Assembly (NCBI GenBank): GCA_041666745.1 | Contig: JBAYGI010000003.1 | Coordinates: forward strand, 12,782 to 76,781 | DNA from: Candidatus Magasanikiibacteriota bacterium | Lineage (GTDB): Bacteria; Patescibacteriota; Patescibacteriia; Magasanikbacterales; GWA2-37-8 | Length of the DNA: 64,000 bases | Reading direction: 5' to 3' | Shown: piece after piece, positions 13,656 through 64,000 of the stretch | Layout: each line of letters opens with the position of its first letter | Numbering within the stretch: position 1 is the stretch's first letter | Notes under the pieces: model-generated | What the model saw: only the letters and a program-made list of their open reading frames with translations | The model's database searches: none | Told to the model about the DNA's origin: nothing | Made by a program: the position numbers and the translations under genes

Positions 13656-13660
13656 TATTG

Positions 13661-24838: not shown

Positions 24839-24865
24839 TCTTGAACGATCACGATATTGTAATGA

Positions 24866-25894: not shown

Positions 25895-26020
25895 TAATTT
25901 TTAGCCCTTATATTATAACATTTCCTCAAAAAAATGGCAACTGCAAAAAACGCCCAAAACCACCACTGGGGTTGATTTTTTAGCCAAATTATAATATACT
26001 TCAAAAATAAGATTAACTCT

Positions 26021-27373: not shown

Positions 27374-27386
27374 CAAAAACAACCAA

Positions 27387-28475: not shown

Positions 28476-28480
28476 ATCAA

Positions 28481-29575: not shown

Positions 29576-29576
29576 A

Positions 29577-30413: not shown

Positions 30414-30417
30414 AAAA

Positions 30418-31485: not shown

Positions 31486-31486
31486 A

Positions 31487-32449: not shown

Positions 32450-32494
32450 TTCGCGCGGCGAAAAATAATATATATTTGGCTAAAATACTTATAA

Positions 32495-33568: not shown

Positions 33569-33577
33569 AAATAAAAA

Positions 33578-34483: not shown

Positions 34484-34484
34484 A

Positions 34485-35755: not shown

Positions 35756-36752
35756 TAATAGAATCTTTTTTCGCCCAAATCTTCTCCACCCATTCCAAAT
35801 TCCCCAAATACCAATCCACCGTCTCCTTCAAACCCTGTTCAAACTTCTCGCGTGTATATTCCGGCACCCACCCCAAAGACAAAATTTTCGTAGCATCAAT
35901 CGCATACCGACGATCATGCCCCGGTCGATCCTGAACATGTTCAATAAAACTTTCATCTTTACCCATCATTTTCAAAATCATATGCGTAATTTCCATATTA
36001 CTACGTTCATTATCCACACCAATATTATACACCCCACCCGCCTCACCTTTTTCCAATAACAAATCCAAAGCCGAGGCGTGATCATTTACATGAATCCAAT
36101 CACGCACATACAAACCATCACCATACATTGGCACCTTTTCATTTTTCATTAATTTCATCACAAAAAATGGAATCAATTTTTCCGGATACTGATACGATCC
36201 ATAATTGTTGGAACAATGCGTCACCACCACCGGCACTTTGTGAGTAACGAAATAAGCATGACACATCATATCGCCACCCGCTTTGGCCGCGGCGTATGGC
36301 ATATTGGGATTAATAGGAGTATGTTCGGAAAATTTGTCCGGACTATCCAAACGCAAAGCTCCATATACTTCATCCGTAGAAACATTGACCATTTTTTCCA
36401 AATTGTTTATTCGCACCGCATCGAGCAACATCTGCACGCCCAAAGTATTGGTCAAAACAAAATCTTTACAACCACCGTGGATAGATTTGTCCACATGTGT
36501 TTCCGCGGCAAAATTTATCAGATGGGTGATGTGGTGTTTTTGGATTGTTTCATTTACTTTTTCCAAATCAATAATATCCCCCCGCACAAAACTATAATTT
36601 GGATTATTTTCTAAATCTTTTAAATTATCCAAATTCCCAGCGTAAGTTAATTTATCCAAATTCACTATCTCGCGATCCGGATATTTTGTTAAATAATAAT
36701 GAATAAAATTTGAACCAATAAATCCCGCTCCTCCACAAACAAGTAATTTCAT
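35739..36752 (-). CDS. rmlB: dTDP-glucose 4,6-dehydratase (RmlB)
   Basis: 337 aa; GGAGFIGSNF, YxxxK, extended SDR. Confidence 0.9.
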   Translation of the reverse strand: MKLLVCGGAGFIGSNFIHYYLTKYPDREIVNLDKLTYAGNLDNLKDLENNPNYSFVRGDIIDLEKVNETIQKHHITHLINFAAETHVDKSIHGGCKDFVLTNTLGVQMLLDAVRINNLEKMVNVSTDEVYGALRLDSPDKFSEHTPINPNMPYAAAKAGGDMMCHAYFVTHKVPVVVTHCSNNYGSYQYPEKLIPFFVMKLMKNEKVPMYGDGLYVRDWIHVNDHASALDLLLEKGEAGGVYNIGVDNERSNMEITHMILKMMGKDESFIEHVQDRPGHDRRYAIDATKILSLGWVPEYTREKFEQGLKETVDWYLGNLEWVEKIWAKKDSINDHIK

Positions 36753-39569: not shown

Positions 39570-39605
39570 ATAACTATAACACAAAACAGACATTCTGTCA
39601 AATTG
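39570..39605 (-). promoter_or_regulatory. Near-consensus sigma70 promoter (TTGACA-N17-TATAGT) on minus strand driving the high-GC ORF
   Basis: Reverse complement of 39570-39605 reads aatTTGACAgaatgtctgttttgtgtTATAGTtat; lies immediately 3' of the giant surface protein gene. Confidence 0.45.
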
Positions 39606-42600
39606 GCCATTGAAACCAAAGTGTCGGATCCCAAAATGTTTTAACATTCATAAAATTTCTTGAGTCCATATTATTGAGATGTAGGATTGGTAACGGATCC
39701 ACACTACCCGACAAAATACCGGTATCCAAATTCATCAAATTGGTATTATCCAGTGTCAGCTCCCCACTAAATATTTTTATTCCATTGGTGTTGGCCACAT
39801 TTGGTTTTGATCCGATATAACCAATCGAACTATTGTTTATTACTACAGTTGAATTATTTATTTCCAAAGTATTTCCAGACGGTTTACTATCCAACAACTG
39901 ACAATTTTGCATATCCAGTTTGCCGTTTTTTACTGTCACCATCCCCTGATAGGTATCGTTCCAAATCGTACCACGCCCGCCGGAGATGTTGGCGTTTTTA
40001 AAACCACCTTTACCACCATCAAAAATAATTCTACCCCAATAATTAATTATTAATGGTTGAATCGCCGAGATATTTATTGGATCATTTTCTGTTCCATTTA
40101 AATTTAAAATACCTTTTACCAAAATATTTGAATACTCCGGCATTTTAATATTGGTTCCGGCGGAGACATTTAGAGTTATGTTTGGTTCAACGGTGATATT
40201 TTGCCAAGTCATCGGAATATCTTTTTCAACAGTGAGATCAGTAGAAATCACCGCTTGGTCTATAGCGACATTATTTGCAATATTATTACTAAAATTTATT
40301 TGTGACATTTTTGGCCAAATATTTTTTACATAAACCGGACCATTGATATTTGTAAAATTATTTAAGCCAATATTTTCCAATTCCAAACTGCCGTCATAAT
40401 TTTCTATTGCCAACACACCATTTTTAAAATCCGTATTTTTAACAGTCGAAGTTGTTTTGGATAAATAAATATTTGTGTCCCCGCTATCACTGAAAATAGA
40501 ATTATTAATATTTAATCCCGCACTGACAGCCCGCACTGCTTGAGAAACAAATGGGTCATAAGTATTGGCACCCGGAGCTTTGAAAGCCTTACCGGCATAG
40601 CGCATATCCAAACCGGACAAATTGGCGGTTGAACTGGCATACAACAATAGCCCCTGCCAATCTTTGGCCAAAGCACTTCCCGATCGAGTACCGATAATAG
40701 TTTTGTACCCTTCCGATTCAAAATTTACATCTCTGCCGGATGTCATAATCACTCGACTGTCGCTGGTGCCATTTATATTCAAATTCCCTTTGATATCAAT
40801 TTTGGAATCCGCATAATAAGTTTTTATTACCACTCCCGAATCAATGTTGAAAGTTTTACCAACCGGAATTTCATAATAAGTTAAAATATACGGATAAATA
40901 CTTTTTTTCAAAGTGCGATCGGTTTCAACCTGACGACTCTTGAGAACTATCGATCCAAAATTTGATTGCTTTGGTGAACCGTTGAGTGGAAGATCATCAC
41001 CACCGCCATCTACTTTGCCTGTGAATCTCGGACCTTGGTTTGTTTGCCAATTGGTTGAATTATTTCCGGGTAAACGTGAATTTATTTTTTCCATCGAAGA
41101 ATAAGTAACGTCGGAACCGGCAAACCAAGTACTACTACAATCCACTTCATCCACGAGCTGATTGTTTCCGTCCAACAAACGCAGGCGCTCACCACTATTT
41201 TTTAATGCACCGGAATAAATAATGTCTGCCGGAATTTCATTGACTGTGCGATCGTCGGTGCGTTCAAATAAATAATAACCATTTTTGGGAATGATACGAT
41301 TGACGATTTTTCCAATACTAATTTCTTTATCTCCGATCATAAGTTTCCACCACTTGGAGGTGTTGGTGGCGGAAAATAAATTTATATCTTGATCGGTGTT
41401 GTTGTATAACTCGATAAACTCATCTTGGTCGGTGACCGAGGACGTGCCTGCCCAGGCGATTTCGTTTATTACTACGTCGGGGGCGGGTGGAACTGGATCT
41501 GGGATTTCGGGAGTGGATGTGGGGGTGGTGGAGGTTGGGGTGGTGGAGGTTGGGATTGTGGAAGTTGGGGTTGTATCTGGGATGGTTGAGGTGGGAATTT
41601 CGATAGGTGTGGTTGTGGGGGTGATTGGGGTGGTGGTGGGTATTTCTATGGTGGTAGTTGGAATGTCGATTGTGGAGGTGGGAGTTTCGATTGTGGAAGT
41701 AGCAACAGGTACGGTTGTTGTAGGAACAGGTGTTTGAATAACTACGACTGGATCAGCAACTGGGATTATGGTCGGATTGGATCCGCCACCGCCTCCACCT
41801 CCACCGGTGGAATGTTCTGGTGGTTGAATTGGAGTTGGATTATTTATTGGTGGGTTTGGTGTTGGTTGGGGTGGTGATATGACTGGTTGTGTAGTTGGAG
41901 GTGTGTTTGGTGCTGGATTTTGGTTTACTGGAGGTGTATTGTTTGGGGTATTGTCGGACACGGGATTGTTGGTATTTTCTCCGGATGTAATTTGATCATT
42001 TGGTGTTTGAGAATTGGCAGAATCATAAATATTTTCCGCTACTGAAATTATGTCTCCAACTCCAGTGTCTATCAAGCCACCTAAGCCAATTCTAAAAAAT
42101 GGCAGTTTTTCGGTTTCATTTTTTTGTACATCGGAGAGGAATAATTTTATGGTGTTGGCGCTGTAACTGACGGCTTTGGGGAGGAGGTGGGAGGCGTAGT
42201 CTTGGAGGATCACACTGTTGTTTACCATGTTTTTATCTTCTTTCCAATCAGTACCACCTATCAAATGACTTTTTATTAAATTACTATCACTATCTTTAGT
42301 CGAAGCAACATATAGATCAACTGCATTATTAAAATTATACGGATCCAATTTAGAAATTTTATGTACACTATACTTACTATTTTCAATCGTCTTGTCACTA
42401 TAAAAATTACTATTTGAATATTTAGCCGCATCATTAAAAATATCTTCTAGACTATTTTTATCAGCTACCTCACTTTTAATATTTTTACTTATTGTACTCC
42501 AATTATTTTTTACATAACTTTCATACGAGTCCGGTGGAATAGCATGAATACTGTCACGTGTATGAGCTGGCACCAACATATCAGATACCAGGTGAATATT

Positions 42601-43023
42601 GTGACCTAATTCTTTAAAAGCCAACTCTTTGTTGCCTTTACGAAAATCATTTATTGCTCTTTGCCAACTATTATCACCCAACGAAAAAGCGGTTTGTTTG
42701 TCATAATCTTTTGCCCAAACTTTGGCGGAATCATTTTGTTTTCCAAAAAATAATCCGCGATTGTATATCGGATCATAAAAATGATTTAACCATCTGGTCG
42801 GTTGATCCTCCTCTACTGTGCCGGTTTTGATCCAACCAAGTTGTTCAACTGAAATTTTTTGACTGTTGTTTTGATTGTATTGTTTCACGGCCAAATCGGC
42901 AATTCCGGGATGGGCAACGTTGGAATCATAACAAAAAACTTGGCGCACGAACGCCAAGTTTAAAAAAATAACAAAAATAATAAAAACAAATAATTGAAAA
43001 CACTTATCCCCTCCCTTTTTCAT
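39598..43023 (-). CDS. Giant secreted multidomain protein: zinc-dependent phospholipase C / P1-nuclease-like domain, Pro/Thr-rich linker, Gly9 run, lamin-tail domain, right-handed beta-helix repeats
   Basis: 1141 aa; signal peptide; HFYDP and HNIHLVSDMLVPAH (zinc PLC/S1-P1 motifs); VVINEIAWAGTS...DEFIELYN (LTD); NxxG-type beta-helix repeats C-terminally. Confidence 0.75.
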   Translation of the reverse strand: MKKGGDKCFQLFVFIIFVIFLNLAFVRQVFCYDSNVAHPGIADLAVKQYNQNNSQKISVEQLGWIKTGTVEEDQPTRWLNHFYDPIYNRGLFFGKQNDSAKVWAKDYDKQTAFSLGDNSWQRAINDFRKGNKELAFKELGHNIHLVSDMLVPAHTRDSIHAIPPDSYESYVKNNWSTISKNIKSEVADKNSLEDIFNDAAKYSNSNFYSDKTIENSKYSVHKISKLDPYNFNNAVDLYVASTKDSDSNLIKSHLIGGTDWKEDKNMVNNSVILQDYASHLLPKAVSYSANTIKLFLSDVQKNETEKLPFFRIGLGGLIDTGVGDIISVAENIYDSANSQTPNDQITSGENTNNPVSDNTPNNTPPVNQNPAPNTPPTTQPVISPPQPTPNPPINNPTPIQPPEHSTGGGGGGGGSNPTIIPVADPVVVIQTPVPTTTVPVATSTIETPTSTIDIPTTTIEIPTTTPITPTTTPIEIPTSTIPDTTPTSTIPTSTTPTSTTPTSTPEIPDPVPPAPDVVINEIAWAGTSSVTDQDEFIELYNNTDQDINLFSATNTSKWWKLMIGDKEISIGKIVNRIIPKNGYYLFERTDDRTVNEIPADIIYSGALKNSGERLRLLDGNNQLVDEVDCSSTWFAGSDVTYSSMEKINSRLPGNNSTNWQTNQGPRFTGKVDGGGDDLPLNGSPKQSNFGSIVLKSRQVETDRTLKKSIYPYILTYYEIPVGKTFNIDSGVVIKTYYADSKIDIKGNLNINGTSDSRVIMTSGRDVNFESEGYKTIIGTRSGSALAKDWQGLLLYASSTANLSGLDMRYAGKAFKAPGANTYDPFVSQAVRAVSAGLNINNSIFSDSGDTNIYLSKTTSTVKNTDFKNGVLAIENYDGSLELENIGLNNFTNINGPVYVKNIWPKMSQINFSNNIANNVAIDQAVISTDLTVEKDIPMTWQNITVEPNITLNVSAGTNIKMPEYSNILVKGILNLNGTENDPINISAIQPLIINYWGRIIFDGGKGGFKNANISGGRGTIWNDTYQGMVTVKNGKLDMQNCQLLDSKPSGNTLEINNSTVVINNSSIGYIGSKPNVANTNGIKIFSGELTLDNTNLMNLDTGILSGSVDPLPILHLNNMDSRNFMNVKTFWDPTLWFQWPI
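41400..41960. repeat. Coding low-complexity tandem repeats (Pro/Thr/Ile-rich linker)
   Basis: Repeated gtggaggttgggg-type units on the + strand (complement encodes PTTT/IPTST repeats). Confidence 0.7.
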
Positions 43024-43726: not shown

Positions 43727-44632
43727 TTACTCTACATTCCACACTTTTTTCAATTCTTTTATTCCATTTTCCAAATCAATTGTCGGTTCCCATTTCAATA
43801 ATTCTTTGGCACGCGAGATGTCGGCCTGAATATTTTTCATTTCTCCTTTGCGTTCCGGAATTTGTTTTCTGTCACCATCGATGAGGCTGGCTATTTCATT
43901 TACACTGCTTTGTTTGCCGGAACCGACATTAATACTCAACCCACCACCAACAGACGACTCCCACGCCAAAATATTGGCTTGTACCACATCCTGAACGTGC
44001 ACGTAATCGCGCGTAGCCGTACCATCACCGACAATCGTGAGAGGCAGGTTATTTTTCTTCTGATCCAAAAATACTGGGATAACCATCGGGTATGAGCCAT
44101 TTGCCAATTTACGCGGACCAAACACATTGAAATAACGCAGACAAACTGTTGGTAAATCAAACAAACTGGAATACAAACGACAATATTGTTCCCCCATCAA
44201 TTTATGCAAACCATACGGACTCAGCGGATTTGTGCCCTCACTCTCATTTATTGGTAAAGTTTTTACATCACCATACACCGCGCAAGAGGAAGAAAAAATT
44301 ACTTTTTTGACACCATTTTGTCGCGCCGCTTCCAACACATTTATCGTGCCGGTAACATTTATTTCATGAGTAGTGATCGGATCCTCTATGGAAACCGGCA
44401 ATCTAGGATCAGCTGCCAGATGAAACACGGCGTCTGCTCCTTTAAAATATTTAACTATTTTTTTATAATCGCGAATATCTTCTTTGACAAAATCGGCCTT
44501 TTTGTTAACAAATTCTTTTTTGCCCAGCATTAAATTGTCTATCACTATTACTTCATGACCTAGCTCGATCAATTTGTCCGCCAGATGTGAACCGATAAAC
44601 CCCGCTCCGCCTGTGACTATTAATTTTGACAT
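43727..44632 (-). CDS. NAD-dependent epimerase/dehydratase (UDP-hexose 4-epimerase-like)
   Basis: 301 aa; TGGAGFIGSHL; YxxxK. Confidence 0.7.
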   Translation of the reverse strand: MSKLIVTGGAGFIGSHLADKLIELGHEVIVIDNLMLGKKEFVNKKADFVKEDIRDYKKIVKYFKGADAVFHLAADPRLPVSIEDPITTHEINVTGTINVLEAARQNGVKKVIFSSSCAVYGDVKTLPINESEGTNPLSPYGLHKLMGEQYCRLYSSLFDLPTVCLRYFNVFGPRKLANGSYPMVIPVFLDQKKNNLPLTIVGDGTATRDYVHVQDVVQANILAWESSVGGGLSINVGSGKQSSVNEIASLIDGDRKQIPERKGEMKNIQADISRAKELLKWEPTIDLENGIKELKKVWNVE

Positions 44633-44633
44633 A

Positions 44634-46043
44634 TTATTTTCCTTTTAAAAATGGACTCCCGACCGCTATGATATCATAGCCTAAATTTTGTAATTCATCA
44701 AATTGGGTAGCCAACATACGACGACCATCCATTATTAAATATGGAGGTGGACAAACTTGTTTGATCGTATCCCCTGCTTCGCGAAACTTTGACCAATCGG
44801 TCAAAATCATACAAACATCAGTACCAACCAAGGCTTCTTTTTCGGAATTAAAATAACTAATTATTTTATAACGTGAATCTTTTTCGGCATTAAATAAATT
44901 TTTAAACATCGGCGTGGCGGCCGGATCATAAATTTTAATTTCTTTCGCGCCATCGTCAATGAGGTGGTAAACAATATCTATCGCGCCGGAGTTGCGAATG
45001 TCGTTGGTGTTTTGTTTGAACGCGACACCCAAAATGGCGACAGTTTTATCCTGATAATCAAAACCGGCTTGTACTTGAGCGCGTTTGTAAAAATTATCTC
45101 GCTGTTTATTATTAATTAATAATGACTGTTTGATATAAGAAACGTCGGCGCCTTTTTTCTCCAACTGATAAGTCAGTGAAGCGGTGTCTTTGATAAAACA
45201 ACTGCCACCGGCAAAAAAACTACTGTAAAGCCCCCAATCATTTGCTCCGATGCGCGGATCGGTGCCAATAATCTTTTTCAGATTTTCAAAATTCAAATTA
45301 TCAAAACTTTCACTGGTTCTACCCATGACTTCAAAACAGTTGGCCAATTTACTCATCAAATAATAGTTGGCCAACAATTTTCCGGCCGCCGCTTCTTTGG
45401 GGTTGACCTCGATATATTTTATATTTTGTATTCTAATAAATTTTTCATAAATACTACGAATAATTTCAAAATCTTGTACCTGCCAAGCGCCCACAACAAT
45501 TCTATCCGGATATAGAGAATCGTGAATGGCCTTACCTTCAACCAAAAATTCCGGATTGGAAGCGACGCCAAAATTGACCACGCCGCTATCGCGCATCATT
45601 TTTTCCGTATCATCCACCATGTCGATTGGCACGGTGCTTTTATTTATTATCAAAACATATTTTGTTTGCGCGCCACCATTTCTACTTGCCAAACTTTGAG
45701 CTAGTTGTTGGGCCGCTATATTGTAATATGTCAGATCCGATTCACCTGATGACTCGGTTTTTTCCGGAGTGGGCAGACACATGAAAATCGCGTCCACGAT
45801 ATCCAGTTCGTCTTTCACCTGATTGTAATCGGCGGTAAATTTTATTTTTTCTTGGTTTTTTATCAACATGTCCGCCAGCCCTTCTTCAAACAAACAAGAT
45901 TCGATTGTTGAGACATCGTTTGATCCGAGTTTGCTGATTTTGGTCTGATCGATGTCATACAACAAAACATCGTGACCGGAATCGGCCATCACTGCGGCGG
46001 AACATGTGCCGACAAAACCGGCGCCGATGTAGAGGATTTTCAT
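44634..46043 (-). CDS. Nucleotide-sugar dehydrogenase (UDP-glucose 6-dehydrogenase / UDP-ManNAc dehydrogenase family)
   Basis: 469 aa; N-terminal GAGFVG NAD-binding domain; catalytic Cys region GGSCF. Confidence 0.8.
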   Translation of the reverse strand: MKILYIGAGFVGTCSAAVMADSGHDVLLYDIDQTKISKLGSNDVSTIESCLFEEGLADMLIKNQEKIKFTADYNQVKDELDIVDAIFMCLPTPEKTESSGESDLTYYNIAAQQLAQSLASRNGGAQTKYVLIINKSTVPIDMVDDTEKMMRDSGVVNFGVASNPEFLVEGKAIHDSLYPDRIVVGAWQVQDFEIIRSIYEKFIRIQNIKYIEVNPKEAAAGKLLANYYLMSKLANCFEVMGRTSESFDNLNFENLKKIIGTDPRIGANDWGLYSSFFAGGSCFIKDTASLTYQLEKKGADVSYIKQSLLINNKQRDNFYKRAQVQAGFDYQDKTVAILGVAFKQNTNDIRNSGAIDIVYHLIDDGAKEIKIYDPAATPMFKNLFNAEKDSRYKIISYFNSEKEALVGTDVCMILTDWSKFREAGDTIKQVCPPPYLIMDGRRMLATQFDELQNLGYDIIAVGSPFLKGK

Positions 46044-46045
46044 AT

Positions 46046-47137
46046 TTATTTTTTCGTTACTTCGTTATAAATTTTTTGTGTTTCGGATAACATTTTATCA
46101 ACTGAATAATTTTCTATTATTGATAAACGAGCAGAATCTCCAATTTGTTTTCTTAAATCTTTGTTTTTAATTAAATCTTCTAATACAACAGGTAACCGTT
46201 CTGAATTTTTAATTAAGAATCCATTTTTACTATTTATTATTTCATTCAAACCACCGACATCTGAAGCGATCACCGGCAAACCAACACTCATCGCTTCTAA
46301 CACTGACAACGGCAATCCTTCCCATTGGGATAATAAAACAAAAATATCGGATTGACACAATACTCTCAAAACATTTTCTCGTGTTAAACTACCCAACATT
46401 TTCACTTCATTCATCTGATTGTTTTTTATAAAATTTTCCAATTCAGTTTTTAACGGACCGGTGCCAACAATCGAAACTTCTAAATTTATTTTTAAATTAT
46501 CCGGTAAATTTTTTATCGTCTGCAATAACATTAACGGTTGTTTTGGTAACGCTAATCTGCCAACAAAAACTATTTTAATTTTATCGTCAGTCTTATTTAC
46601 TAATTGACAATCGGTTTCTACTCCGTTATAAACCACGTCAAATTTATCTTCTTTGGCAATATGGTATTTTAACGCCAAATCTTTAACAAATTTAGAAACA
46701 CAAATTATTTTAATACAATATTTTGCCGCTAATTTTTCTCCGATAATCGCTAGTTGTTTTTGGATAAAAGGCACGCCAATATTAAAACCCCAACCATGGG
46801 CGGTATAAAGCGTTGGAACTCTATTCTGAACCGCCAATCTACCAAGAAACCCCGCCATCGAGCTGTGACAATGCACAACGTCCGGTTTAAAATCAGATAC
46901 TACAGTTTGTATTTTTTTGATTGAATTTAAAAGATTAAACGGATTAAAACTATTGGAAAAATAATTATTAGCAAAAAATTTTCCACCAATCTTTTTTATT
47001 TCATTTTCCAACCAGCCACTAGGATATGACATCACCACCACTTCGTGGCCTTGAGATATAAAATACCGGCTCAACTGTAAAACATGAGTTTGCGCGCCAC
47101 CTTCTTCGGATTTTGTGATTAGGTATAGGATTTTCAT
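46046..47137 (-). CDS. GT4 (GT-B fold, group 1) glycosyltransferase
   Basis: 363 aa; EGLPLSVLEAMSVGLPVIASDVGG motif. Confidence 0.75.
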   Translation of the reverse strand: MKILYLITKSEEGGAQTHVLQLSRYFISQGHEVVVMSYPSGWLENEIKKIGGKFFANNYFSNSFNPFNLLNSIKKIQTVVSDFKPDVVHCHSSMAGFLGRLAVQNRVPTLYTAHGWGFNIGVPFIQKQLAIIGEKLAAKYCIKIICVSKFVKDLALKYHIAKEDKFDVVYNGVETDCQLVNKTDDKIKIVFVGRLALPKQPLMLLQTIKNLPDNLKINLEVSIVGTGPLKTELENFIKNNQMNEVKMLGSLTRENVLRVLCQSDIFVLLSQWEGLPLSVLEAMSVGLPVIASDVGGLNEIINSKNGFLIKNSERLPVVLEDLIKNKDLRKQIGDSARLSIIENYSVDKMLSETQKIYNEVTKK

Positions 47138-47916
47138 GTTTTTTTGAGAAAAATTTTTACAAAAAACAACCGCACTGATCTGCGCAATAACGCAAAAAAA
47201 TAATTGGGGTAATCATTTTTATACCTGTTTATTATAACTAAATTATCTTCTAACGCATTCACAATTTTGATTCTACTAACATTCTGACCATGCTGGCAAT
47301 AATTTACAAAAATACTTGGAATATTTATCAATCTCCCTAATCGTCCTAATCTTAAAAACAAATCATAATCTTCCCCAACCTGCAAAGACTCGTCATACCC
47401 GCCTGATTTTACAGCTAAATCTTTTTTAAACATTACACTAGAATTTACAAATGGGTTTTTAAATAAAAATTTACTACGAATTTGGCCGTCTGTTGTAGGG
47501 TTCAAAAAACTATTCTTTTTGTTTCCTAATCGATCTACAACCTGATAACCACCACCAACTAAAACAAATTCGCCGCTTTCTAATAAATCAAATTGTTTTT
47601 GTAATTTATTTTTATCCGACCAATAGTCGTCGCTATCTAAAACCGCAATATATTTACCAGATGATAACTGCAGTGCTAAATTACGAGACTTTCCTATTCC
47701 CAAATTAGTGTCATTTTTAAAATATTTAATTCGAGAATCTTTTTGTATGTATTCCGAAACCAAAACTGCGGTATTGTCGATAGAACAATCATCCACAATA
47801 ATTAGCTCCCAATCTTTAAAAGATTGCACCAAAACACTGTCTATTGCTTTAGATAAGAAATCTTCTCGATTATATGTGATAATATTAACACTTACTTTTG
47901 TCATATTGTAGTCCAT
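47134..47916 (-). CDS. GT2 glycosyltransferase
   Basis: 260 aa; VNIITYNRE ... IIVDDCSIDNT. Confidence 0.75.
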   Translation of the reverse strand: MDYNMTKVSVNIITYNREDFLSKAIDSVLVQSFKDWELIIVDDCSIDNTAVLVSEYIQKDSRIKYFKNDTNLGIGKSRNLALQLSSGKYIAVLDSDDYWSDKNKLQKQFDLLESGEFVLVGGGYQVVDRLGNKKNSFLNPTTDGQIRSKFLFKNPFVNSSVMFKKDLAVKSGGYDESLQVGEDYDLFLRLGRLGRLINIPSIFVNYCQHGQNVSRIKIVNALEDNLVIINRYKNDYPNYFFALLRRSVRLFFVKIFLKKT

Positions 47917-48752
47917 TCAGAAGGCAACAGCTCGCTCGTGTCAATATTGGATACCAACAACCAACGAGACGGCGCTACCACGATCTTCTGTGGATTCTGA
48001 TTTAACCATGCCCCCCACCAACTAAAAGTGCTGTTAGCAATAATCTGATGCTTACACAAACTCATCAACAGTAGTTCTTCGGCGTTGCTCAAAGTCGGCC
48101 TAGAAACAAAAACCATCGGACTGTCAAATTTGAGGTTTTCTCGCGCCCAAGCGATATCGTCGGAAAAAATAAACAACTTAACACTGGAATATTTTTTCTT
48201 AATTTGATCTAAGCCCTGTTGGTAATATTTAATATCACAAAGACCATTCCAATTTTTACAAGAAGAAGAGTAGTCACCTCGCCTAACATGAACAGCAACA
48301 GATTCACCTGACAACTCAATATCGTTTTTTGTCTTTTGCGCATCCTGAGAATAACCATTCTTTAAAACAAAATCATCCAACAACGTCTTCCTAATGGAAT
48401 CGGGGTATTTATAACTTTGAAAATACCCATCGAGATAAACATTGTTTTTCTTTTTTAATAACCCGGAATGAAAATGATAAAAATAGTTTCGATCTAGACG
48501 AGCACGGATCTTGTTAATTATTTTTGAGAAAAAACAAGGCATGACCTGCTCTCTCTCTTGATCCGTCACTTCAACTAAATTTATTTTAAATTTATCAATA
48601 TCCAAAGTTCTTGGAGTTTCACTATTTTTAATATTTTGAAACCATGACAAATCAAATTTTAATTCATCGTTCCAATCCAAAGACAACCGCCGACCAAGGG
48701 CGTATTGAAACATCTGATTGCCTAAGCCAGCTTTAATTTTTACGACAATCAT
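47901..48752 (-). CDS. GT11 alpha-1,2-fucosyltransferase-like glycosyltransferase
   Basis: 283 aa; GLGNQMFQYA family-11 signature. Confidence 0.75.
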   Translation of the reverse strand: MIVVKIKAGLGNQMFQYALGRRLSLDWNDELKFDLSWFQNIKNSETPRTLDIDKFKINLVEVTDQEREQVMPCFFSKIINKIRARLDRNYFYHFHSGLLKKKNNVYLDGYFQSYKYPDSIRKTLLDDFVLKNGYSQDAQKTKNDIELSGESVAVHVRRGDYSSSCKNWNGLCDIKYYQQGLDQIKKKYSSVKLFIFSDDIAWARENLKFDSPMVFVSRPTLSNAEELLLMSLCKHQIIANSTFSWWGAWLNQNPQKIVVAPSRWLLVSNIDTSELLPSEWTTI

Positions 48753-48776
48753 AAATTATCTGATACAATATTTAAT

Positions 48777-49766
48777 TTATGAATTATCTTTTTTGTTTTC
48801 TTTTACTTGTTGATCTATCCATCTATATAATTTTTCCATACCAACTTTTAAAGGTTGAGATGGCGCCCAATCAAGCTTTTCCCTAATTAAATTATTGTCA
48901 GAATTTCGGCCACGTACTCCCGTAAATCCTTCAACATGATTAATATTTAATTTTTTACCAGCAATATCCATCACCATATCCGCCAAATCATTTACTGAAA
49001 TCATTTCTTCGGAACCAATATTCATCGGACCAACAAATTCTGAATCCATGAAACGACGAATAGCTTCAAGACATTCATCGATATACAAAAATGAACGGGT
49101 TTGCAGGCCATCACCCCAAACTTCAATAGTACCACCGTCAATGGCTTCAGCAACTTTACGAGAAATGGCCGCGGGAAATTTTTCTTTACCATTATTCCAA
49201 GTACCTTCTGGCCCGAAGATATTATGAAAACGAGCAATCCTGACATTCAGGCCGTAATTACGCGCATACGACAAATACATACGTTCACTAAACAATTTTT
49301 CCCAACCATATTCACTGTCAGGGGCAGCCGGATAAGCAGAAGCTTCAGAACATTTTGGATTATTTGGATCCATTTGATTATACTCAGGATAAATACAAGC
49401 AGAGGATGAATAAAATATCTTCTTGACCCCTACTTTATGGGCTCGATCAACTATATTTAAATTGATGGTGGCGGAGTTATGCATAACATCGGCATCATGT
49501 AATCCAGAAAATATATAACCAGCGCCGCCCATATCAGCGGCTAGCTGATAAACTTCGTCAAATGGCAAATCTAATATTTTTTCAACTACGAGTTGATTCC
49601 TCAAATCCCCAATGACAAATTCGTCAGCGACAGTCGGTGAAAATTCTGGTTTTTTTAAATCTACTCCCCTTACCCAAAAACCCTCTTTCTTTAACTTTTC
49701 TACCAAGTGACTGCCGATAAAACCACCGGCACCACAAACCAAGGCTTTTTTATCCATATGATACAA
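48777..49766 (-). CDS. GDP-mannose 3,5-epimerase-like SDR
   Basis: 329 aa; GAGGFIGSHL...VRGVDLKKPEF...EFVIGDLR parallels the GME N-terminal pattern. Confidence 0.55.
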   Translation of the reverse strand: MYHMDKKALVCGAGGFIGSHLVEKLKKEGFWVRGVDLKKPEFSPTVADEFVIGDLRNQLVVEKILDLPFDEVYQLAADMGGAGYIFSGLHDADVMHNSATINLNIVDRAHKVGVKKIFYSSSACIYPEYNQMDPNNPKCSEASAYPAAPDSEYGWEKLFSERMYLSYARNYGLNVRIARFHNIFGPEGTWNNGKEKFPAAISRKVAEAIDGGTIEVWGDGLQTRSFLYIDECLEAIRRFMDSEFVGPMNIGSEEMISVNDLADMVMDIAGKKLNINHVEGFTGVRGRNSDNNLIREKLDWAPSQPLKVGMEKLYRWIDQQVKENKKDNS

Positions 49767-58693: not shown

Positions 58694-59392
58694 TTATTTA
58701 CTAAAACGCAATTTAATTATTGTATAAATATAAGATAAAATGAAAACAAATAAATTTCTTTTGGTTTTACCAAAAATTCTCTGCTTAAAACAATACGGCA
58801 ACTCTAATATCTTTAAGTCACTTTTATTTCTTTTTAATTTTAAAAATATTTCTTCTACAATATCAAAATTATTACATTTCAAAACTATTTTTTTTAATTG
58901 ATCAGTGTGATACAGTTTAAAGCTGTTTGAAACGTCTTTGCACTTTAAATTTAAGACTACGGAATATATAACGTTTAGTATCAAACTCATTATTATTAAA
59001 ACCTTGTTGTTTTCAGTTTTTCCTCCAGTCACATAACGTGAAGCAACTACGACATCGTAATTAGACCGACTGGCAAATAAATCTACAATAAATTCTGGGG
59101 TATGAGAACCATCTGCGTCCATAAATATAATATTTTTACCGAGCGCCAATTTAATACCAGTTCTTACAGCATCACCATAATTATTGCCTCCCTCTCTATT
59201 GATATATTTAACCACATTCTCTTCACAAACACTCTCAGTCTTATCCATAGGTCGCTGAGTATCTACGACAATAATTTCGTAAGGTACTAACAATTTTTCT
59301 ACTGCAAGATGAATACGTGGTAATAATAGTTTTAAATTGTCTTCTTCTTGATAGGCAGGAAGAATAATACTTAATATAATATTTTGGGTCAT
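58694..59392 (-). CDS. GT2 polyprenyl-phosphate glycosyltransferase (GtrB/ArnC-like)
   Basis: 232 aa; ILPAYQEEDN ... IVVDT ... DADGSH. Confidence 0.75.
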   Translation of the reverse strand: MTQNIILSIILPAYQEEDNLKLLLPRIHLAVEKLLVPYEIIVVDTQRPMDKTESVCEENVVKYINREGGNNYGDAVRTGIKLALGKNIIFMDADGSHTPEFIVDLFASRSNYDVVVASRYVTGGKTENNKVLIIMSLILNVIYSVVLNLKCKDVSNSFKLYHTDQLKKIVLKCNNFDIVEEIFLKLKRNKSDLKILELPYCFKQRIFGKTKRNLFVFILSYIYTIIKLRFSK

Positions 59393-59393
59393 A

Positions 59394-60422
59394 TCATTTC
59401 ATTATTTCACCAGACCAATTTAACATTTTTTTAATACCGGTAACTTTGTCAATCTTTGGAAACCAAGCAATGTCATTTTGAATTTTAGTTAGATCAGCAA
59501 TGAATATTTTTTGATCACTTATTCGTACTGGTAATTCAATGTATTTTATTTTAACTTTTAACTCTTTTTCTAATAAACCAAATAATTCTAAAATAGACAA
59601 ACTATTTTCCATGCCACCGCCAATATTATAGCATTGTCCAGCTGTTTTATCAATGTTGAGAACAGCCGCAAAATACAACCGAACCATATCATCAGCGAAC
59701 AAAATATCTCTTACTTGTTTACCATTCCCGGAAATCGTAAGTCCTGAATAATTTGGATCTTTTACAAATTTTAACGCTTCCTGACAAAACCAACCAACCC
59801 ACCCCTGATCAGCGGTAGAGAACTGACGACCACCAAACATTGAAGAATGTCTAAACACAACGGTTCGTATACCAAAAACTTTATAATAATCAATCATATA
59901 TTGATCGGCACACCCCTTCGAACAACCATAAGGAGAAGAAAAACTTAAAGGAGTATTTTCAGACAACCCATTGGGAAAATCAGTGCTAATATAACGAGTG
60001 CTGTTTTCCTTGTAATGAACCCATTCTAAATCTCCATATACTTTATTAGTAGAAGAATATATTACAATTGATTGAGGGCTAAAACGACGAATGTTTTCTA
60101 ATAAATTTATGGTTCCCTGGGCATTAACCGAAAAATCATACAACGGGTCTTGCAAAGATGTGGTCATGGCAACCTGACCAGCGAGATGAAATACCACGTC
60201 TGGCATTTCTTCCTTTATTATTTTTTCTAACTGTTCATAATTTCTAATATCACATTCATAAAAATTAAAATGTCCATTTTCCTTTAACCAATCGAGGTTA
60301 GCACGAGATCCCATTCTAGATAAATTATCAACTACCACCAACTGATCTTTAGTGGTTGCAATTATGTGGCTAGCTATGTTTGAACCCAAAAAACCACACC
60401 CGCCGGTTATCAAATATTTCAT
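59394..60422 (-). CDS. NAD-dependent epimerase, CDP-paratose 2-epimerase (tyvelose epimerase)-like
   Basis: 342 aa; TGGCGFLGSN; HLAGQVAMTTS motif resembling the tyvelose epimerase signature. Confidence 0.55.
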   Translation of the reverse strand: MKYLITGGCGFLGSNIASHIIATTKDQLVVVDNLSRMGSRANLDWLKENGHFNFYECDIRNYEQLEKIIKEEMPDVVFHLAGQVAMTTSLQDPLYDFSVNAQGTINLLENIRRFSPQSIVIYSSTNKVYGDLEWVHYKENSTRYISTDFPNGLSENTPLSFSSPYGCSKGCADQYMIDYYKVFGIRTVVFRHSSMFGGRQFSTADQGWVGWFCQEALKFVKDPNYSGLTISGNGKQVRDILFADDMVRLYFAAVLNIDKTAGQCYNIGGGMENSLSILELFGLLEKELKVKIKYIELPVRISDQKIFIADLTKIQNDIAWFPKIDKVTGIKKMLNWSGEIMK

Positions 60423-61321
60423 ATTATTTTTTTATTTCTCTCAATTAATAACATTTTCTCTAAACCCCGCTTAATATCATAATTTGGTACCCAGCCCAAG
60501 TGCTTAATAGCAATAGTATCTGATACAGATTGCATCACTTCATTCTCACGGTAAGGCAAGGCTCCAAAATTGAGTTCGGTTACATGGTTATTAGACAATT
60601 CTTTAATAGTTTCTACCAACCATCTAATGGAAATTAATTTGTTTGTACCAATTTCATAATGAAAAAAACCATCTGCATTGTTGGTAAGATTTTTTATTAC
60701 TAACATAAATGCATCAACCACATCATCAATATAGACAAAATCTCTCTGTTGTTCACCCTTAGTCAAATTTATGCTCTTTACTTTATTTAACAAAGAATCA
60801 AAAATATTAGAAACAAATTTGGTTTTATCATCACCAGGACCGTAAAAATGCTCCAAAGCCATATTTACGCAGACAATGTCATCTTGGTAGGTTTTAAGCC
60901 AATCGATAAACTGTGCTTTAGACAAAGAATAATGACTTACTCTTTTGTCTAAAATTGTATCTGTATTAATAAAACACTTCACTTTGTTTTCTTTGCCTAA
61001 TTCCAATAATTTTAATGGTAAAATTAAATTAGCTTCAATAACTTGTAATGGTAACGATTGTTTACGCCCATAGTCAGTGGCACAATGCAAAACAACATCT
61101 ATAGGCTGATCTTTAAACACCACGGACAAATCCACTTGGTCGATGTTATAATATTTCACATTAGATAATACATCATCGATACGATGAGTGTTAGAGTAAG
61201 ATCTTTTTAATAAAATAACTTTATATTTATTTAAAATCAGACGACGCAACAGATTGCTACCTAAAAACCCCGTACCGCCTGTTATAAGTATTGTCTTGGC
61301 TATAATTAGTTTTTCATCCAT
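60419..61321 (-). CDS. SDR-family NDP-sugar reductase (CDP-abequose/paratose synthase-like)
   Basis: 300 aa; TGGTGFLGSNL; context next to RfbH and the epimerase. Confidence 0.5.
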   Translation of the reverse strand: MDEKLIIAKTILITGGTGFLGSNLLRRLILNKYKVILLKRSYSNTHRIDDVLSNVKYYNIDQVDLSVVFKDQPIDVVLHCATDYGRKQSLPLQVIEANLILPLKLLELGKENKVKCFINTDTILDKRVSHYSLSKAQFIDWLKTYQDDIVCVNMALEHFYGPGDDKTKFVSNIFDSLLNKVKSINLTKGEQQRDFVYIDDVVDAFMLVIKNLTNNADGFFHYEIGTNKLISIRWLVETIKELSNNHVTELNFGALPYRENEVMQSVSDTIAIKHLGWVPNYDIKRGLEKMLLIERNKKII

Positions 61322-61325
61322 AAAA

Positions 61326-63302
61326 TTACCAATTAATATTTTTAAATAGAGCGTTCCCCATCAATTCTTTTCCTACCAAATCATCTTCCACAAGTTCAAA
61401 ACCAAAATTACTTAAATATTTTTTAAGACAATCATAATCTTCAGCACCATCGTAAAACTCTTTTTTGGACACCTCTGTATAAATGAAATGTATGCTTTTT
61501 ATTTTATCTCCTAAGGATTTAAAGATACGGTATTCCATTCCCTGAGCGTCAATCCAAAGCAAATCTATTTTATCCACACAATTGGACGTCAACCAGACAT
61601 CCAACAAAACTGCCGACACAAATACACTTCCTTGAAATTCTACTCCAGGAAAATATTTTAAATGTTCTTTTGGTCTCAATAGCGAACTTGAACACCCACT
61701 ATTATCGCTAACAAACATCTCAACTTGATCAACATTTTTATCGTCAGTAACAGCATTTTGGATTATTTCAATATTTTTAAAATCTTTAGTTTTAAATTTT
61801 AATCGCGCAAAAGTATTTGGTAATGGTTCAAATGCATAAATTTTGCCGTTTGGCCATAATGTAGCCATCTCTACAGTATCACTACCAACATGAGCACCTA
61901 TTTCTATAACCACAGGATTAGTGCCTATATAACGTGAAATTTTTTTCTTGGAAATAAGGGAGTTTCGATTCAGAAACAATCTAATTTTAAGATATAATTT
62001 ATATAGTTGGTAGTTGTTAATAGTGTAATTCTTTAAGTTAAATTCTGGCTTTAAATTTATATTATTTGCAATATAAAAATACCACATTAATACAACGACC
62101 GTCAGCATATAGACGGGTCGAAGAGCAAAAACAGTCATAAATGGTTGCTGATCAAACACTGGAAACAACAACGGTTGAGACAATGACAAAAATAGCAATA
62201 ATTGGATAAATAAGTCACAATAAAAACCAATTTTTGGTCTCAGATTCCAATAAACAGTAAAAATAAATAAATAATATAGACTATTATGCAACCACGACAC
62301 TGTCGGTAAGAATGAGACCAAAAACATCAAAGTTCCAAATTCAAGCAACATCAAATCTTTATTTTGTTTTTCTATTTTATTTACTTTATAAAATAGTCCA
62401 AAAAAGAAACCAGATATAATTAAACCAACGATTGCAGTTAACAATTGTGCCTGTTGAAGATTTAGAATATTATAAGTAAAACGATTGTATATTATACCTC
62501 CCAAACCAGTACTCAAACCACCGGCAACTATACCACTGGTAGCAAAACTAGATACAACACCCCAGAAATCAACAAATGAATTCATGCCAAATATTAAGAC
62601 AAAAAATAATAAAGAAATAATAGTATAAATAAATACTTTTTTATTTTTAATAAAAAAGTATGGAAGAAAAACTATCGGCATCAATTTTAATACAATCGAC
62701 GATGCTAATAAAAAACTAGAGATCTTGTATTTCCCTTGCAAATAAAACAAAAGGCACAAAGACACTAATAATAGTATCTCTATATTTGTTTGCCCTCGAT
62801 CTAGATGGAGCAAGAAAGCCGGAGAGAATAAAAATACCAAAAAAGTAATAATAAAATATGGCCATTTTTGCTGAACAAGTTTACTTAAAAAATACACCGA
62901 AAGAAGCAGTAAAAGAATCGAGACTAAATTATACACAAAAAAAGACACATCGAGCGGTAGCATGCTAAACGGAATGAAAAAATAAGCCATCAACGGAGGA
63001 TAATTAAATCTGGCGTATTCAAAAGGATAGCTGGTTTCACCAGGGTAACGATCGTTGAGTGGAAAATAAAAATTTTTCCCCTGAGATGCCCGCATTCCAG
63101 CAAAATAAAAATAATTATAATCTATACCAGTACTATAATTAATTGTAGGCTTAAGAAATTTGGAATTATTTGCAAATGGTTGATAGTTAAAATCAAAAAT
63201 CAACACAGACAATGCCAAAATACCGAACAAATAAATACCGACAAATAAATATCTACTAAGAAATAATTTAAATTTTTCTTTTGTTTCGTTTTTTAAAAAC
63301 AT
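61326..63302 (-). CDS. Fusion protein: N-terminal DUF2029/GT87-like polytopic glycosyltransferase plus C-terminal FkbM-family SAM methyltransferase
   Basis: 658 aa; RFNYPPLMAYFFIPF loop motif with ~11 TM; C-terminal VVIEIGAHVGSDTVEMA ... FEPLP FkbM signature. Confidence 0.65.
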   Translation of the reverse strand: MFLKNETKEKFKLFLSRYLFVGIYLFGILALSVLIFDFNYQPFANNSKFLKPTINYSTGIDYNYFYFAGMRASQGKNFYFPLNDRYPGETSYPFEYARFNYPPLMAYFFIPFSMLPLDVSFFVYNLVSILLLLLSVYFLSKLVQQKWPYFIITFLVFLFSPAFLLHLDRGQTNIEILLLVSLCLLFYLQGKYKISSFLLASSIVLKLMPIVFLPYFFIKNKKVFIYTIISLLFFVLIFGMNSFVDFWGVVSSFATSGIVAGGLSTGLGGIIYNRFTYNILNLQQAQLLTAIVGLIISGFFFGLFYKVNKIEKQNKDLMLLEFGTLMFLVSFLPTVSWLHNSLYYLFIFTVYWNLRPKIGFYCDLFIQLLLFLSLSQPLLFPVFDQQPFMTVFALRPVYMLTVVVLMWYFYIANNINLKPEFNLKNYTINNYQLYKLYLKIRLFLNRNSLISKKKISRYIGTNPVVIEIGAHVGSDTVEMATLWPNGKIYAFEPLPNTFARLKFKTKDFKNIEIIQNAVTDDKNVDQVEMFVSDNSGCSSSLLRPKEHLKYFPGVEFQGSVFVSAVLLDVWLTSNCVDKIDLLWIDAQGMEYRIFKSLGDKIKSIHFIYTEVSKKEFYDGAEDYDCLKKYLSNFGFELVEDDLVGKELMGNALFKNINW

Positions 63303-63303
63303 A

Positions 63304-64000
63304 CTATTTTTTAGTAATAAAATTAATTTCTAAAAAATCTTCAAAACAATCCACTATATAATCCAACATAGGTAGACTAATACCAGGAAAAACACCTATC
63401 CAAAAAGTATTATTCATAATTGAATCAGTATTATTCAATTCTCCAACAACCCGATATTCAATTTTATTATTAATAAAATATGGCTGTTTGGTAATGTTGC
63501 CGGCGAATAATAACCTAGTTCCAATTTTTTTGCCATCAAAATACTTTATTAGCGCCGTTCTGTCGATCCCTGAATTTTCTTTTATAGTTAATAAAAAACC
63601 AAACCAGCTAGGGTCAGCTTCAGGCAAATATTGTGGCAAGATAAAATATTTATCAAATTTTTTGAATTTTTCTAACAAATATTTAAAATTTTCTTTTCTT
63701 CTAACAACAAAGTTTGGTAATTTTTCAAACTGTGCCAATCCTAGCGCTGCCTGAATATCAGTCATCTTTAAATTATAACCCAGTTCACTATAAATATATT
63801 TATGATCATACCCTTGTGGTAAACATCCCAATTTCCAACCAAAGCGGTTGTGACAAGTATCGTCTTTACCAGTTGGACACCAACAATCCCTTCCCCAATC
63901 TCTAAGTGAACGGATAATTTTTGTTAAGAACAAGTCATTTGACAAAACAGCACCTCCCTCAGCCGTAGTCATGTGGTGGGCAGGATAAAAGCTTAATGTA
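63304..64000 (-). CDS. DegT/AHBA-synthase-family PMP-dependent CDP-6-deoxy-D-xylo-4-hexulose-3-dehydrase (RfbH/DdhC, E1), C-terminal part; gene continues past window end
   Basis: Open frame to the window edge; SFYPAHHMTTAEGG has His replacing the family Lys as in E1 dehydrases; RDWGRDCWC motif. Confidence 0.7.
   Translation of the reverse strand, partial: TLSFYPAHHMTTAEGGAVLSNDLFLTKIIRSLRDWGRDCWCPTGKDDTCHNRFGWKLGCLPQGYDHKYIYSELGYNLKMTDIQAALGLAQFEKLPNFVVRRKENFKYLLEKFKKFDKYFILPQYLPEADPSWFGFLLTIKENSGIDRTALIKYFDGKKIGTRLLFAGNITKQPYFINNKIEYRVVGELNNTDSIMNNTFWIGVFPGISLPMLDYIVDCFEDFLEINFITKK

Follow-up and report, generated by a model that had tools for sequence, protein, structure and literature searches.

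What do genes for 3,6-dideoxyhexoses do in a genome of Candidatus Magasanikbacteria, and how might their products reach the cell surface? 3,6-Dideoxy, acyl-branched and methylated sugars are antigenic determinants of Gram-negative pathogens, and members of the Patescibacteria, or candidate phyla radiation (CPR), are mostly uncultured episymbionts of almost unknown surface chemistry, whose surface glycans probably mediate attachment to the host. The question is raised by the end of a 64,000-nucleotide (nt) stretch, hereafter the window, of contig JBAYGI010000003.1 (assembly GCA_041666745.1, positions 12,782 to 76,781). Four genes that an original prediction, made from the letters of the window, had described there are all present on the minus strand (Table 1). 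They encode part of a CDP-4-keto-6-deoxy-D-glucose 3-dehydrase (E1, also RfbH or DdhC); a fusion of a GT87 membrane glycosyltransferase with an FkbM methyltransferase; a 300-amino-acid (aa) extended short-chain dehydrogenase/reductase (SDR), here SDR300; and a 342-aa homologue of CDP-tyvelose 2-epimerase, here TyvE342.

The contig was extended by exact look-up of the fusion protein, which led to ENA contig k141_1534839 (144.9 kb), also present in an NCBI metagenome-assembled genome (MAG). The locus recovered in this way (L001) is 100% identical to the window across 12,001 bases, and a second walk on the same contig (L004) reached about 20 kb past the window end. Because the gaps between successive genes from E1 onward are so short (1, 4, -4, 1, 12, 33, 12 and 5 nt), the genes can be taken to form one operon; positions 59394-64000 lie in the central part of this glycan operon, which exceeds 30 kb in length. 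As judged from sequence comparison, the assignment of these genes to dideoxyhexose biosynthesis is very likely to be correct. Transfer of the sugar through a lipid carrier and a GT-C glycosyltransferase is proposed more tentatively, and biosynthesis and lipid-carrier transfer combined form a picture that we consider reasonably probable.

Table 1. Positions of the genes, domains and motifs discussed in the text (window coordinates unless L004 is named).
Feature	Position	Strand	Remarks
All window genes of the finding	59394-64000	-	
E1/RfbH/DdhC gene, 3' part	63304..64000	-	231 codons and stop; CDP-4-keto-6-deoxy-D-glucose 3-dehydrase
His codon in place of the Lys that binds pyridoxal 5'-phosphate (PLP)	63976..63978	-	His216 here, His220 of Yersinia E1
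C-W-C-x7-C part of the E1 [2Fe-2S] motif	63853..63885	-	fourth Cys upstream, beyond the window
GT87-FkbM fusion, 658 aa	61326..63302	-	N-terminal polytopic GT87 (GT-C) glycosyltransferase, C-terminal FkbM-family S-adenosylmethionine (SAM) methyltransferase
Fusion, membrane domain	62061..63302	-	about residues 1-414
Fusion, GT87 Pfam match	62313..63008	-	residues 99-330; PF09594, 73 bits vs cut-off 25, E=4e-20
Fusion, FkbM methyltransferase domain	61392..61904	-	residues 467-637; PF05050, TIGR01444; predicted cytoplasmic
SDR300	60419..61321	-	Pfam Epimerase; candidate CDP-3,6-dideoxy-4-ketohexose C-4 reductase, paratose/abequose-synthase type
TyvE342 (TyvE/RfbE homologue)	59394..60422	-	extended SDR; contains HLAGQVAMTTS
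GT2 glycosyltransferase, 232 aa (GT2-232)	58694..59392	-	Pfam GT2
Polytopic membrane protein, 889 aa	56012..58681	-	homologues in L003, L006, L007
Paralogue of the 889-aa protein, 887 aa	53315..55978	-	49% identical
Two GT2 glycosyltransferases, 278 and 266 aa	51660..53302	-	also downstream in L003
RmlB	35739..36752	-	
RmlD	34485..35345	-	
Long-form RmlA-like nucleotidyltransferase	27387..28514	-	
Split transketolase pair (272 and 307 aa) with SDR	L004 955..3750		
Aldehyde dehydrogenase, two aldolases, two YerE-like thiamine diphosphate (ThDP) enzymes	L004 7351..15096		about 13-21 kb past the window end

E1 dehydrase and the GT87-FkbM fusion

The E1 gene runs about 623 nt past the window end, and the full protein has 439 aa. 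Its frame at 63304..63999 translates as TLSFYPAHHMTTAEGG...SLRDWGRDCWCPTGKDDTC. This fragment matches Pfam DegT (PF01041, E=4.8e-35), the solved Yersinia E1 dehydrase 3BCX (E=2e-90) and the NCBIfam RfbH family NF011936 (E=6e-109), the last at 364.6 bits only because it is truncated at the window end; such E-values lie well outside chance expectation. The full-length protein scores 663.6 bits against the NF011936 equivalog (cut-off 423) and 530 bits against 3BCX across residues 14-435, and it is 55-58% identical to Yersinia E1. The replacement of the PLP-binding lysine by histidine, on which the original prediction had partly built its E1 call, is retained in the full-length alignment: FYPAHH lies at residue 212, and within SFYPAHH the first His of AHH aligns with His220 of 3BCX, the position that is Lys in the H220K mutant 3BB8 (AKH). 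The [2Fe-2S] ligands of E1 reportedly follow the pattern C-x57-C-x1-C-x7-C, attributed to work of Agnihotri et al. from 2004. The sequence CWCPTGKDDTC lies at residue 247, a regular-expression search located the complete C-x57-C-x-C-x7-C at residue 189, and its cysteines align with C193, C251, C253 and C261 of 3BCX. The histidine and CxCx7C are retained in the full-length E1s of the Patescibacteria loci L003, L006, L007 and L091, and the C-x57-C spacing was confirmed in the first three of these. A ColD-like or ordinary aminotransferase was considered and rejected, given a score of 193 bits for ColD versus 530 for E1 and the presence of the Fe-S motif. The window gene is, by its sequence, a genuine E1, that is, a pyridoxamine 5'-phosphate/[2Fe-2S] 3-dehydrase.

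E1 is encoded in at least 597 stretches of GTDB species genomes, from taxa that include Bacteroidota, Elusimicrobia, Planctomycetota, Chloroflexota and Acidobacteria, and in at least 5 distinct Patescibacteria loci. Since it is widespread and recurs in Patescibacteria, it is no speciality of Gram-negative O-antigens and is less unexpected here than was first supposed. The original prediction, which had treated dideoxyhexose genes as an O-antigen trait unexpected in this background, thus overstated the taxonomic surprise; its enzymology was largely right and its view of the context incomplete.

The gene following E1 encodes the fusion protein, whose FkbM half scores 64.2 bits against PF05050 (cut-off 22.7) and 75.2 bits against TIGR01444 (cut-off 37.7), in line with other FkbM-family O-methyltransferases, whose class I SAM-methyltransferase fold it also shares. 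The fusion is present on three independently read contigs, and the orthologous fusions P0002-P0004 (662 aa, 75-76% identity) retain both halves; it is therefore no assembly artefact, and the DUF2029/GT87-FkbM protein of the original prediction is real. Its architecture is rare. The two domains occur together in only four 90%-identity clusters of a 5.8-billion-protein collection, and of 1.84 billion representatives searched exhaustively with HMMER, one, corresponding to one 50%-identity cluster, spans both halves, the other matches covering one half each. In L090, two stand-alone FkbM genes come after a GT87 that is 60% identical to the N-terminal half of the fusion; the protein encoded by the second of them (239 aa) is 60% identical to the C-terminal half. 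As GT87 and FkbM are separate neighbours in that locus, the fusion has evidently joined neighbouring genes.

Relatives of both halves occur in other fusions (P0262, P0285, P0271, P0266, P0317 and P0281): GT87 is fused to GtrA, in either order, and the closest FkbM relatives, where they do not stand alone, are fused to a Wzx flippase, GT4 or GT2, whereas here the partner is a GT-C membrane domain. The closest stand-alone FkbM, P0252, is encoded on a 1.7-kb contig, which gave no informative gene context. Such GT87-GtrA and FkbM-Wzx/GT4/GT2 fusions are Rosetta-stone links among glycan-assembly functions. The GT87-FkbM protein is a rare, Pfam-supported architecture, and its halves are enzymes of known families.

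A profile of the GT87 half matched PIG-M (E=9e-9) and PimE (E=3e-5) in PDB. An AlphaFold2 model of the fusion, built from 10 homologues (pLDDT, the predicted local distance difference test, 60.4) and used for the rank order of fold matches only, gave PimE as the top match (9DM5, E=5e-5, TM-score 0.57), followed by class I SAM methyltransferases. PimE spans the membrane with 12 helices, its N- and C-termini are both cytoplasmic, and its catalytic residue, Asp58, belongs to the first periplasmic loop (PMC12041525). In the GT87 half, the alignment shows D61 (across 10 homologues) and K206 to be invariant; D61 is predicted to lie in the first outer loop and, judged by its position, may correspond to PimE D58. 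The fusion is about 17% identical to PimE, and its donor sugar is probably other than mannose. A Kyte-Doolittle hydropathy profile, which was noisy, was used only to place the membrane-embedded part (about residues 11-410) and the soluble tail. Because the N-terminus and the linker past the last transmembrane helix are rich in Lys and Arg, and given the topology of PimE and the requirement for SAM, the FkbM domain would lie in the cytoplasm. A fused cytoplasmic FkbM is found in none of the PimE, Gtr and Arn systems.

Genomic neighbourhood and proposed transfer of the sugar

The GT87 half of the fusion is orthologous (50-60% identity) to single-domain GT87s on other Patescibacteria contigs, and in at least six Patescibacteria loci it is linked to E1, a GtrB/ArnC-like GT2 and, often, GtrA. 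The gene orders are a GT2, GtrA, a GT87 paralogue, E1 and the fusion in L003; GT2, GtrA, E1 and GT87 in L006; E1, an acyltransferase, GT2 and GT87 in L007; a 145-aa DegT fragment, GT2 and GT87 in L089; GtrA, E1 and GT87 in L091; and GtrA and GT87 in L090. On the contig studied here, the corresponding GT2 of 315 aa (GT2-315), 87% identical to that of L003, is PgfS/ArnC-like by NCBIfam and lies upstream of E1; GtrA is absent from this contig's own GT87 module.

A comparable order is found in Proteobacteria, where E1 is followed by a ThDP-enzyme or transketolase gene, an SDR, GtrA and a GT2 about 55% identical to GT2-315. In Yersinia aleksiciae (NZ_CP011975.1; L013, 7048..17527), ddhD-A-B-C are accompanied by a YerE-like gene, an SDR, GtrA, a GtrB-like GT2 and a gene for a 748-aa DUF7024 protein. 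A Rhodocyclaceae locus (L025, 8116..16772) has the corresponding genes up to the GtrB-like GT2 and ends with a 445-aa protein carrying a sub-threshold GT87 match. The GtrB-like GT2s of these two loci are 53% identical to the CPR enzyme. Addition of yersiniose-type sugars in Proteobacteria may thus depend on a three-component system of the Gtr kind.

In Gtr and Arn systems, a GT2 first attaches the sugar to polyprenyl phosphate; once a small protein has flipped this lipid-linked sugar, a GT-C enzyme carries out the transfer on the outer side. The locus resembles GtrA/GtrB/Gtr(type) and ArnC/ArnT in that GT87 is partnered with a GtrB/ArnC-like GT2, with GtrA in sister loci, and this GT87/E1/GT2/GtrA neighbourhood suggests delivery by way of a lipid-phosphate carrier. 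In the route that we propose, GT2-315 would make the polyprenyl-phosphate sugar, and GtrA or an equivalent would flip it. The GT-C domain of the fusion, of the PimE type, would take the sugar from the polyprenyl-phosphate carrier at the outer face of the membrane, its cytoplasmic FkbM domain having most likely O-methylated the sugar, in nucleotide- or lipid-linked form, before flipping. The acceptor would be a cell-surface glycan or glycoprotein, since the Magasanikbacteria lineage is not known to synthesize lipopolysaccharide (LPS).

Several observations weigh against a role of this module in tyvelose transfer. GT2-315 homologues occur with prt or tyv genes in 0/9 and 0/6 loci among 80 reference loci, these being the E1 loci most like Yersinia E1 among the GTDB stretches, none from Patescibacteria. 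The GT87-E1-GT2 triad is also present in L006 and L007, both of which lack paratose/tyvelose genes, so the substrate of the fusion may be some other sugar, either derived from the E1 product or unrelated to it. For the GT-C reading itself, the low confidence of the structural model (pLDDT 60) is a weakness. Because GT2-315 is never found with prt/tyv and the triad occurs without them in L006 and L007, the sugar of the module is probably an E1-derived one other than tyvelose, perhaps branched.

A more radical alternative is that the fusion has nothing to do with dideoxyhexoses: it would take mannose, glucose or another common sugar from polyprenyl phosphate as PimE does, its FkbM domain would methylate another residue, and its adjacency to E1 would reflect operon packing. 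In favour of such a function, the characterised GT87 and related GT-C matches are mannosyltransferases, FkbM relatives are fused to many kinds of glycan enzyme, and GT2s and sugar-nucleotide genes are numerous elsewhere in the locus, UDP-glucose dehydrogenase-like and rhamnose genes among them. However, the neighbourhood of E1, a GT2-315-like gene and GT87 persists at 50-75% protein identity while the rest of the locus changes, and the Proteobacterial homologues of GT2-315 stand right after E1-ThDP-SDR-GtrA. We therefore regard this alternative as improbable and retain an E1-derived sugar as the likelier substrate of the lipid-carrier route.

Dideoxyhexose and probable acyl-branched sugar genes

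SDR300 has many homologues of 55-77% identity, largely from MAGs of Magasanikbacteria and other Patescibacteria, and several of these (55-65% identity) bear the JGI name 'CDP-paratose synthetase'. TyvE342 matches the solved structures of TaTyvE (9RL0) at 508 bits and of the Salmonella Typhi enzyme (1ORR) at 431 bits; the next-best PDB family, UDP-glucose 4-epimerase, reaches 121 bits. Of the original calls, that of a tyvelose-epimerase-like SDR is borne out by these scores, and that of a CDP-abequose/paratose-synthase-like SDR is supported by gene order and by what the homologues are called. Five of the 80 reference loci contain a strong TyvE homologue (at least 45% identity), and in all five an SDR300-like gene (32-44% identity) lies directly upstream; in three others (L009, L012 and L021), an SDR300-like gene directly follows E1, without TyvE. 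Such an order would be expected of prt-tyv and of abe/prt on its own.

The early steps of the pathway are encoded upstream of the window, on L004. As the original prediction had anticipated, a CDP-glucose 4,6-dehydratase (RfbG; TIGR02622, 462.4 bits, cut-off 278.45) and two glucose-1-phosphate cytidylyltransferase-like (RfbF-like) genes are present there; the reductase E3 (RfbI/DdhD), which it had also placed upstream, was not found in about 85 kb. Read in the direction of transcription, the extended operon starts with a Wzx-like flippase, an SDR, the split transketolase pair, a GT2 and the first RfbF-like gene, followed by an FkbM methyltransferase, RfbG, an acetylating acetaldehyde dehydrogenase, a 4-hydroxy-2-oxovalerate aldolase, an HpcH/HpaI aldolase and a 599-aa ThDP enzyme (ThDP599). 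The second RfbF-like gene, a cupin, a 596-aa ThDP enzyme, a DJ-1/PfpI protein, a HAD hydrolase and a 295-aa SDR (SDR295) come next, and GT2-315, a 419-aa GT87 and E1 lead into the window genes. The dideoxyhexose pathway genes thus extend across about 17 kb, with genes of other functions in between.

From these genes we propose that glucose-1-phosphate would be converted to CDP-glucose by the RfbF-like cytidylyltransferases, then to CDP-4-keto-6-deoxyglucose by RfbG and to CDP-4-keto-3,6-dideoxyglucose by E1, with electrons from an unlinked reductase. SDR300 would reduce this product to CDP-paratose, and TyvE342 would epimerise that to CDP-tyvelose.

The genes upstream of E1 point to a second use of its product. 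Clusters of the erwiniose/caryophyllose type contain ddh genes for CDP-4-keto-3,6-dideoxyglucose, a YerE-type ThDP enzyme, a reductase, an aldolase of the BphI/BphJ or citrate-lyase/HpcH type and sometimes a SAM methyltransferase (Steitz et al. 2022, PMC9306805). Here, the two ThDP enzymes are 47% identical to each other, and ThDP599 matches the YerE-like enzyme JanthE (8RPH) at 413 bits versus about 250 bits for acetolactate synthases. The acetaldehyde dehydrogenase is BphJ-like (368 bits, cut-off 282) and the 4-hydroxy-2-oxovalerate aldolase BphI-like (360 bits, cut-off 286; NCBIfam), and the HpcH-type aldolase scores below its family cut-offs. In reference loci, the SDRs encoded after ThDP or transketolase genes share 23-29% identity with SDR295 (E 1e-4 to 4e-6); these reductases weakly resemble SDR295, not SDR300. 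The upstream set fits the published definition, which places E1 at a branch point: its product can be reduced by SDR300 and epimerised by TyvE, or serve as an acceptor for the ThDP enzymes. E1 thus probably also feeds acyl-branched (yersiniose/erwiniose-type) sugars. In the proposed second branch, the two YerE-like enzymes would act on the E1 product to give acyl-branched sugars of the yersiniose/erwiniose kind, with keto acids supplied by the BphI/BphJ-type and HpcH-type aldolases.

A split transketolase pair also directly follows E1 in 17-18 of the 80 reference loci (e.g. L050, L059 and L051), and the pair suggests a second route for attaching a two-carbon branch to a 4-keto-3,6-dideoxy sugar. 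Between the ThDP enzymes are embedded, on L001, the cupin (236 aa, 1857..2567; weak match to the C-terminal part of mannose-6-phosphate isomerase) and the DJ-1/PfpI and HAD phosphatase genes (4384..5560), all three absent from the sister locus L003.

Downstream of the fusion, SDR300, TyvE342 and GT2-232 form a cassette (58694..61321) that is specific to this contig. In L003, whose E1 and fusion are 92% and 76% identical to those of the window, the fusion is followed by a 296-aa GT2 and a 294-aa SDR (12009..13787), without TyvE; this SDR is only 37% identical to SDR300, and the same pair follows GT87 in L090 and L091. GT2-232 is absent from L003, L006 and L007, and its best matches, to polyprenyl/dolichyl-phosphate sugar synthases (in NCBIfam AglJ, ArnC, PgfS and dolichyl-P hexose transferase), are all below cut-off. 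The difference looks like a swap of sugar-finishing cassettes, as in O-antigen serotype variation, and points to GT2-232 as the likely transferase for what SDR300 and TyvE produce. The cassette would then probably complete a tyvelose-type sugar and hand it over.

The assignment of these steps can be questioned. SDR300 has no match to a curated NCBIfam family at cut-off, and our PDB search returned no solved structure of the paratose/abequose-synthase family with which to compare it. TaTyvE, the closest solved relative of TyvE342, has been characterised on CDP-glucose and CDP-mannose (PMC13098431), and both RfbF-like proteins, for which TIGR02623 is by far the top family, score slightly below its cut-off (276.5 and 236.4 bits; cut-off 300.25). 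Conceivably, then, neither SDR serves paratose or tyvelose: TyvE342 would interconvert CDP-glucose and CDP-mannose, as its best match converts CDP-Glc to CDP-Man in vitro, SDR300 would reduce another 4-keto intermediate (e.g. 6-deoxy or branched), and E1 would serve the acyl-branched route only, for which the YerE-like enzymes and aldolases lie upstream. We think this rather unlikely. The S. Typhi Tyv matches TyvE342 as well, the SDR300-like/TyvE-like pair adjoins E1 in each of the five reference loci with a strong TyvE homologue, and the YerF-like reductases of reference loci resemble the other SDR, SDR295. Action of TyvE342 on CDP-paratose is also favoured by its context, namely E1 and a prt-like gene.

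For paratose and tyvelose synthesis as proposed here, the missing E3 is the most conspicuous gap. Neither a scan for Cys and Fer2/FNR motifs across the window and about 20 kb upstream nor a tblastn search of the window and L001-L007 with 16 reference E3 proteins found an E3, which speaks against a complete local pathway. Its absence carries little weight because only 19 of the 80 reference loci have an E3 homologue within 10 kb of E1, the other 61 having none; a linked E3 is in practice not a defining feature of the E1 family. E1-type enzymes such as SpnQ are reported to use general cellular reductases. That the pathway is incomplete or non-functional, with E1 a relic or an enzyme acting without deoxygenation, is suggested by the fruitless E3 searches and is very improbable in view of these 61 loci, the reported use of general reductases and the conservation of all catalytic and cluster residues in five diverged Patescibacteria E1s.

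Compared with the ddh-prt-tyv genes of the Salmonella group D and Yersinia pseudotuberculosis rfb clusters, the locus likewise has homologues of DdhA (two copies), DdhB, DdhC, a Prt-type reductase and Tyv, with the prt-like gene directly before the tyv-like gene. It differs in that the genes are scattered, that no E3 is linked, that the host is a CPR bacterium without known LPS and that the pathway is joined to GT-C/GT87 and GtrB-like enzymes rather than to the usual cytoplasmic O-unit glycosyltransferases alone. With the yersiniose/erwiniose/caryophyllose clusters (PMC9306805) it shares a YerE-like ThDP enzyme, a BphI/BphJ pair, an HpcH-type aldolase, SDRs and FkbMs beside acceptor genes; here there are two ThDP enzymes, two kinds of aldolase and a split transketolase pair, all outside the window. 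A gene set of this type is not known to have been described in Patescibacteria, and among the papers listed by a literature search none joins CPR/Patescibacteria with paratose, tyvelose, dideoxyhexose or abequose. The individual enzymes are members of known families; what appears to be new is the GT87-FkbM architecture, the E1/GtrB-like/GT87 module and the yersiniose/erwiniose-type set in a CPR bacterium.

The host bacterium thus probably puts 3,6-dideoxy sugars on its surface. If so, small CPR genomes devote more than 30 kb to rare sugars of the 3,6-dideoxy, acyl-branched and methylated kinds, E1-based deoxygenation is common without a linked E3, and rare sugars may follow a lipid-phosphate/GT-C route instead of cytoplasmic transfer; the GT87-FkbM and GT87-GtrA fusions would then be testable functional links for a poorly characterised GT-C subfamily. 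It is a good deal more speculative, and doubtful as a whole, that the surface of Patescibacteria bears both O-methylated 3,6-dideoxy and acyl-branched sugars by way of GtrB-like loading, FkbM methylation of the lipid-linked sugar and GT-C transfer, and that the same Gtr-like route serves yersiniose in Proteobacteria such as Y. aleksiciae.

Contig, host and neighbouring genes

Other genes of the window include those for the housekeeping proteins DnaB, a ClpB-like protein, LepA, RecJ, MurJ and FtsW. Misbinning of the contig from a Gram-negative genome was considered and rejected on the strength of these genes (DnaB, LepA, RecJ, MurJ and FtsW) and of the closest homologues of the fusion, SDR300 and ThDP599, which come from MAGs of Magasanikbacteria and other Patescibacteria. 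The G+C content is 0.28-0.32 at 52-64 kb of the window versus 0.386 at 1-45 kb; horizontal acquisition of the operon's rare-sugar part, or a difference in the constraints on it, may be the reason.

Surface-glycan genes make up about two thirds of the window. Apart from the operon described above, a separate glycan gene set lies at 24170..36752 on the minus strand, where the Rml genes (Table 1) are accompanied by a sugar-phosphate isomerase-like gene and several GT2s. Further SDRs and glycosyltransferases are located at 43727..49766, together with a UDP-glucose dehydrogenase-like gene.

Downstream of GT2-232, two large polytopic membrane proteins and two GT2s continue the run of minus-strand genes. 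The 889-aa and 887-aa proteins gave no match in Pfam, NCBIfam or PDB; in both, the first transmembrane helix is followed by a beta-rich domain of about 140 aa, and homologues of 888-933 aa are kept in the Patescibacteria E1/GT87 loci L003, L006 and L007. They may represent a further, unclassified GT-C-like family, or a polymerase or ligase. Finally, at 39598..43023 on the minus strand, the window encodes an exported protein of 1141 aa that contains a Lamin Tail Domain and a long linker rich in Pro and Thr (PTTTPITPTTTPIEIPTSTIPDTTPTSTIPTSTTPTSTTPTSTPEIPDP); this protein is a plausible acceptor for O-glycosylation by the GT-C enzymes of the locus.

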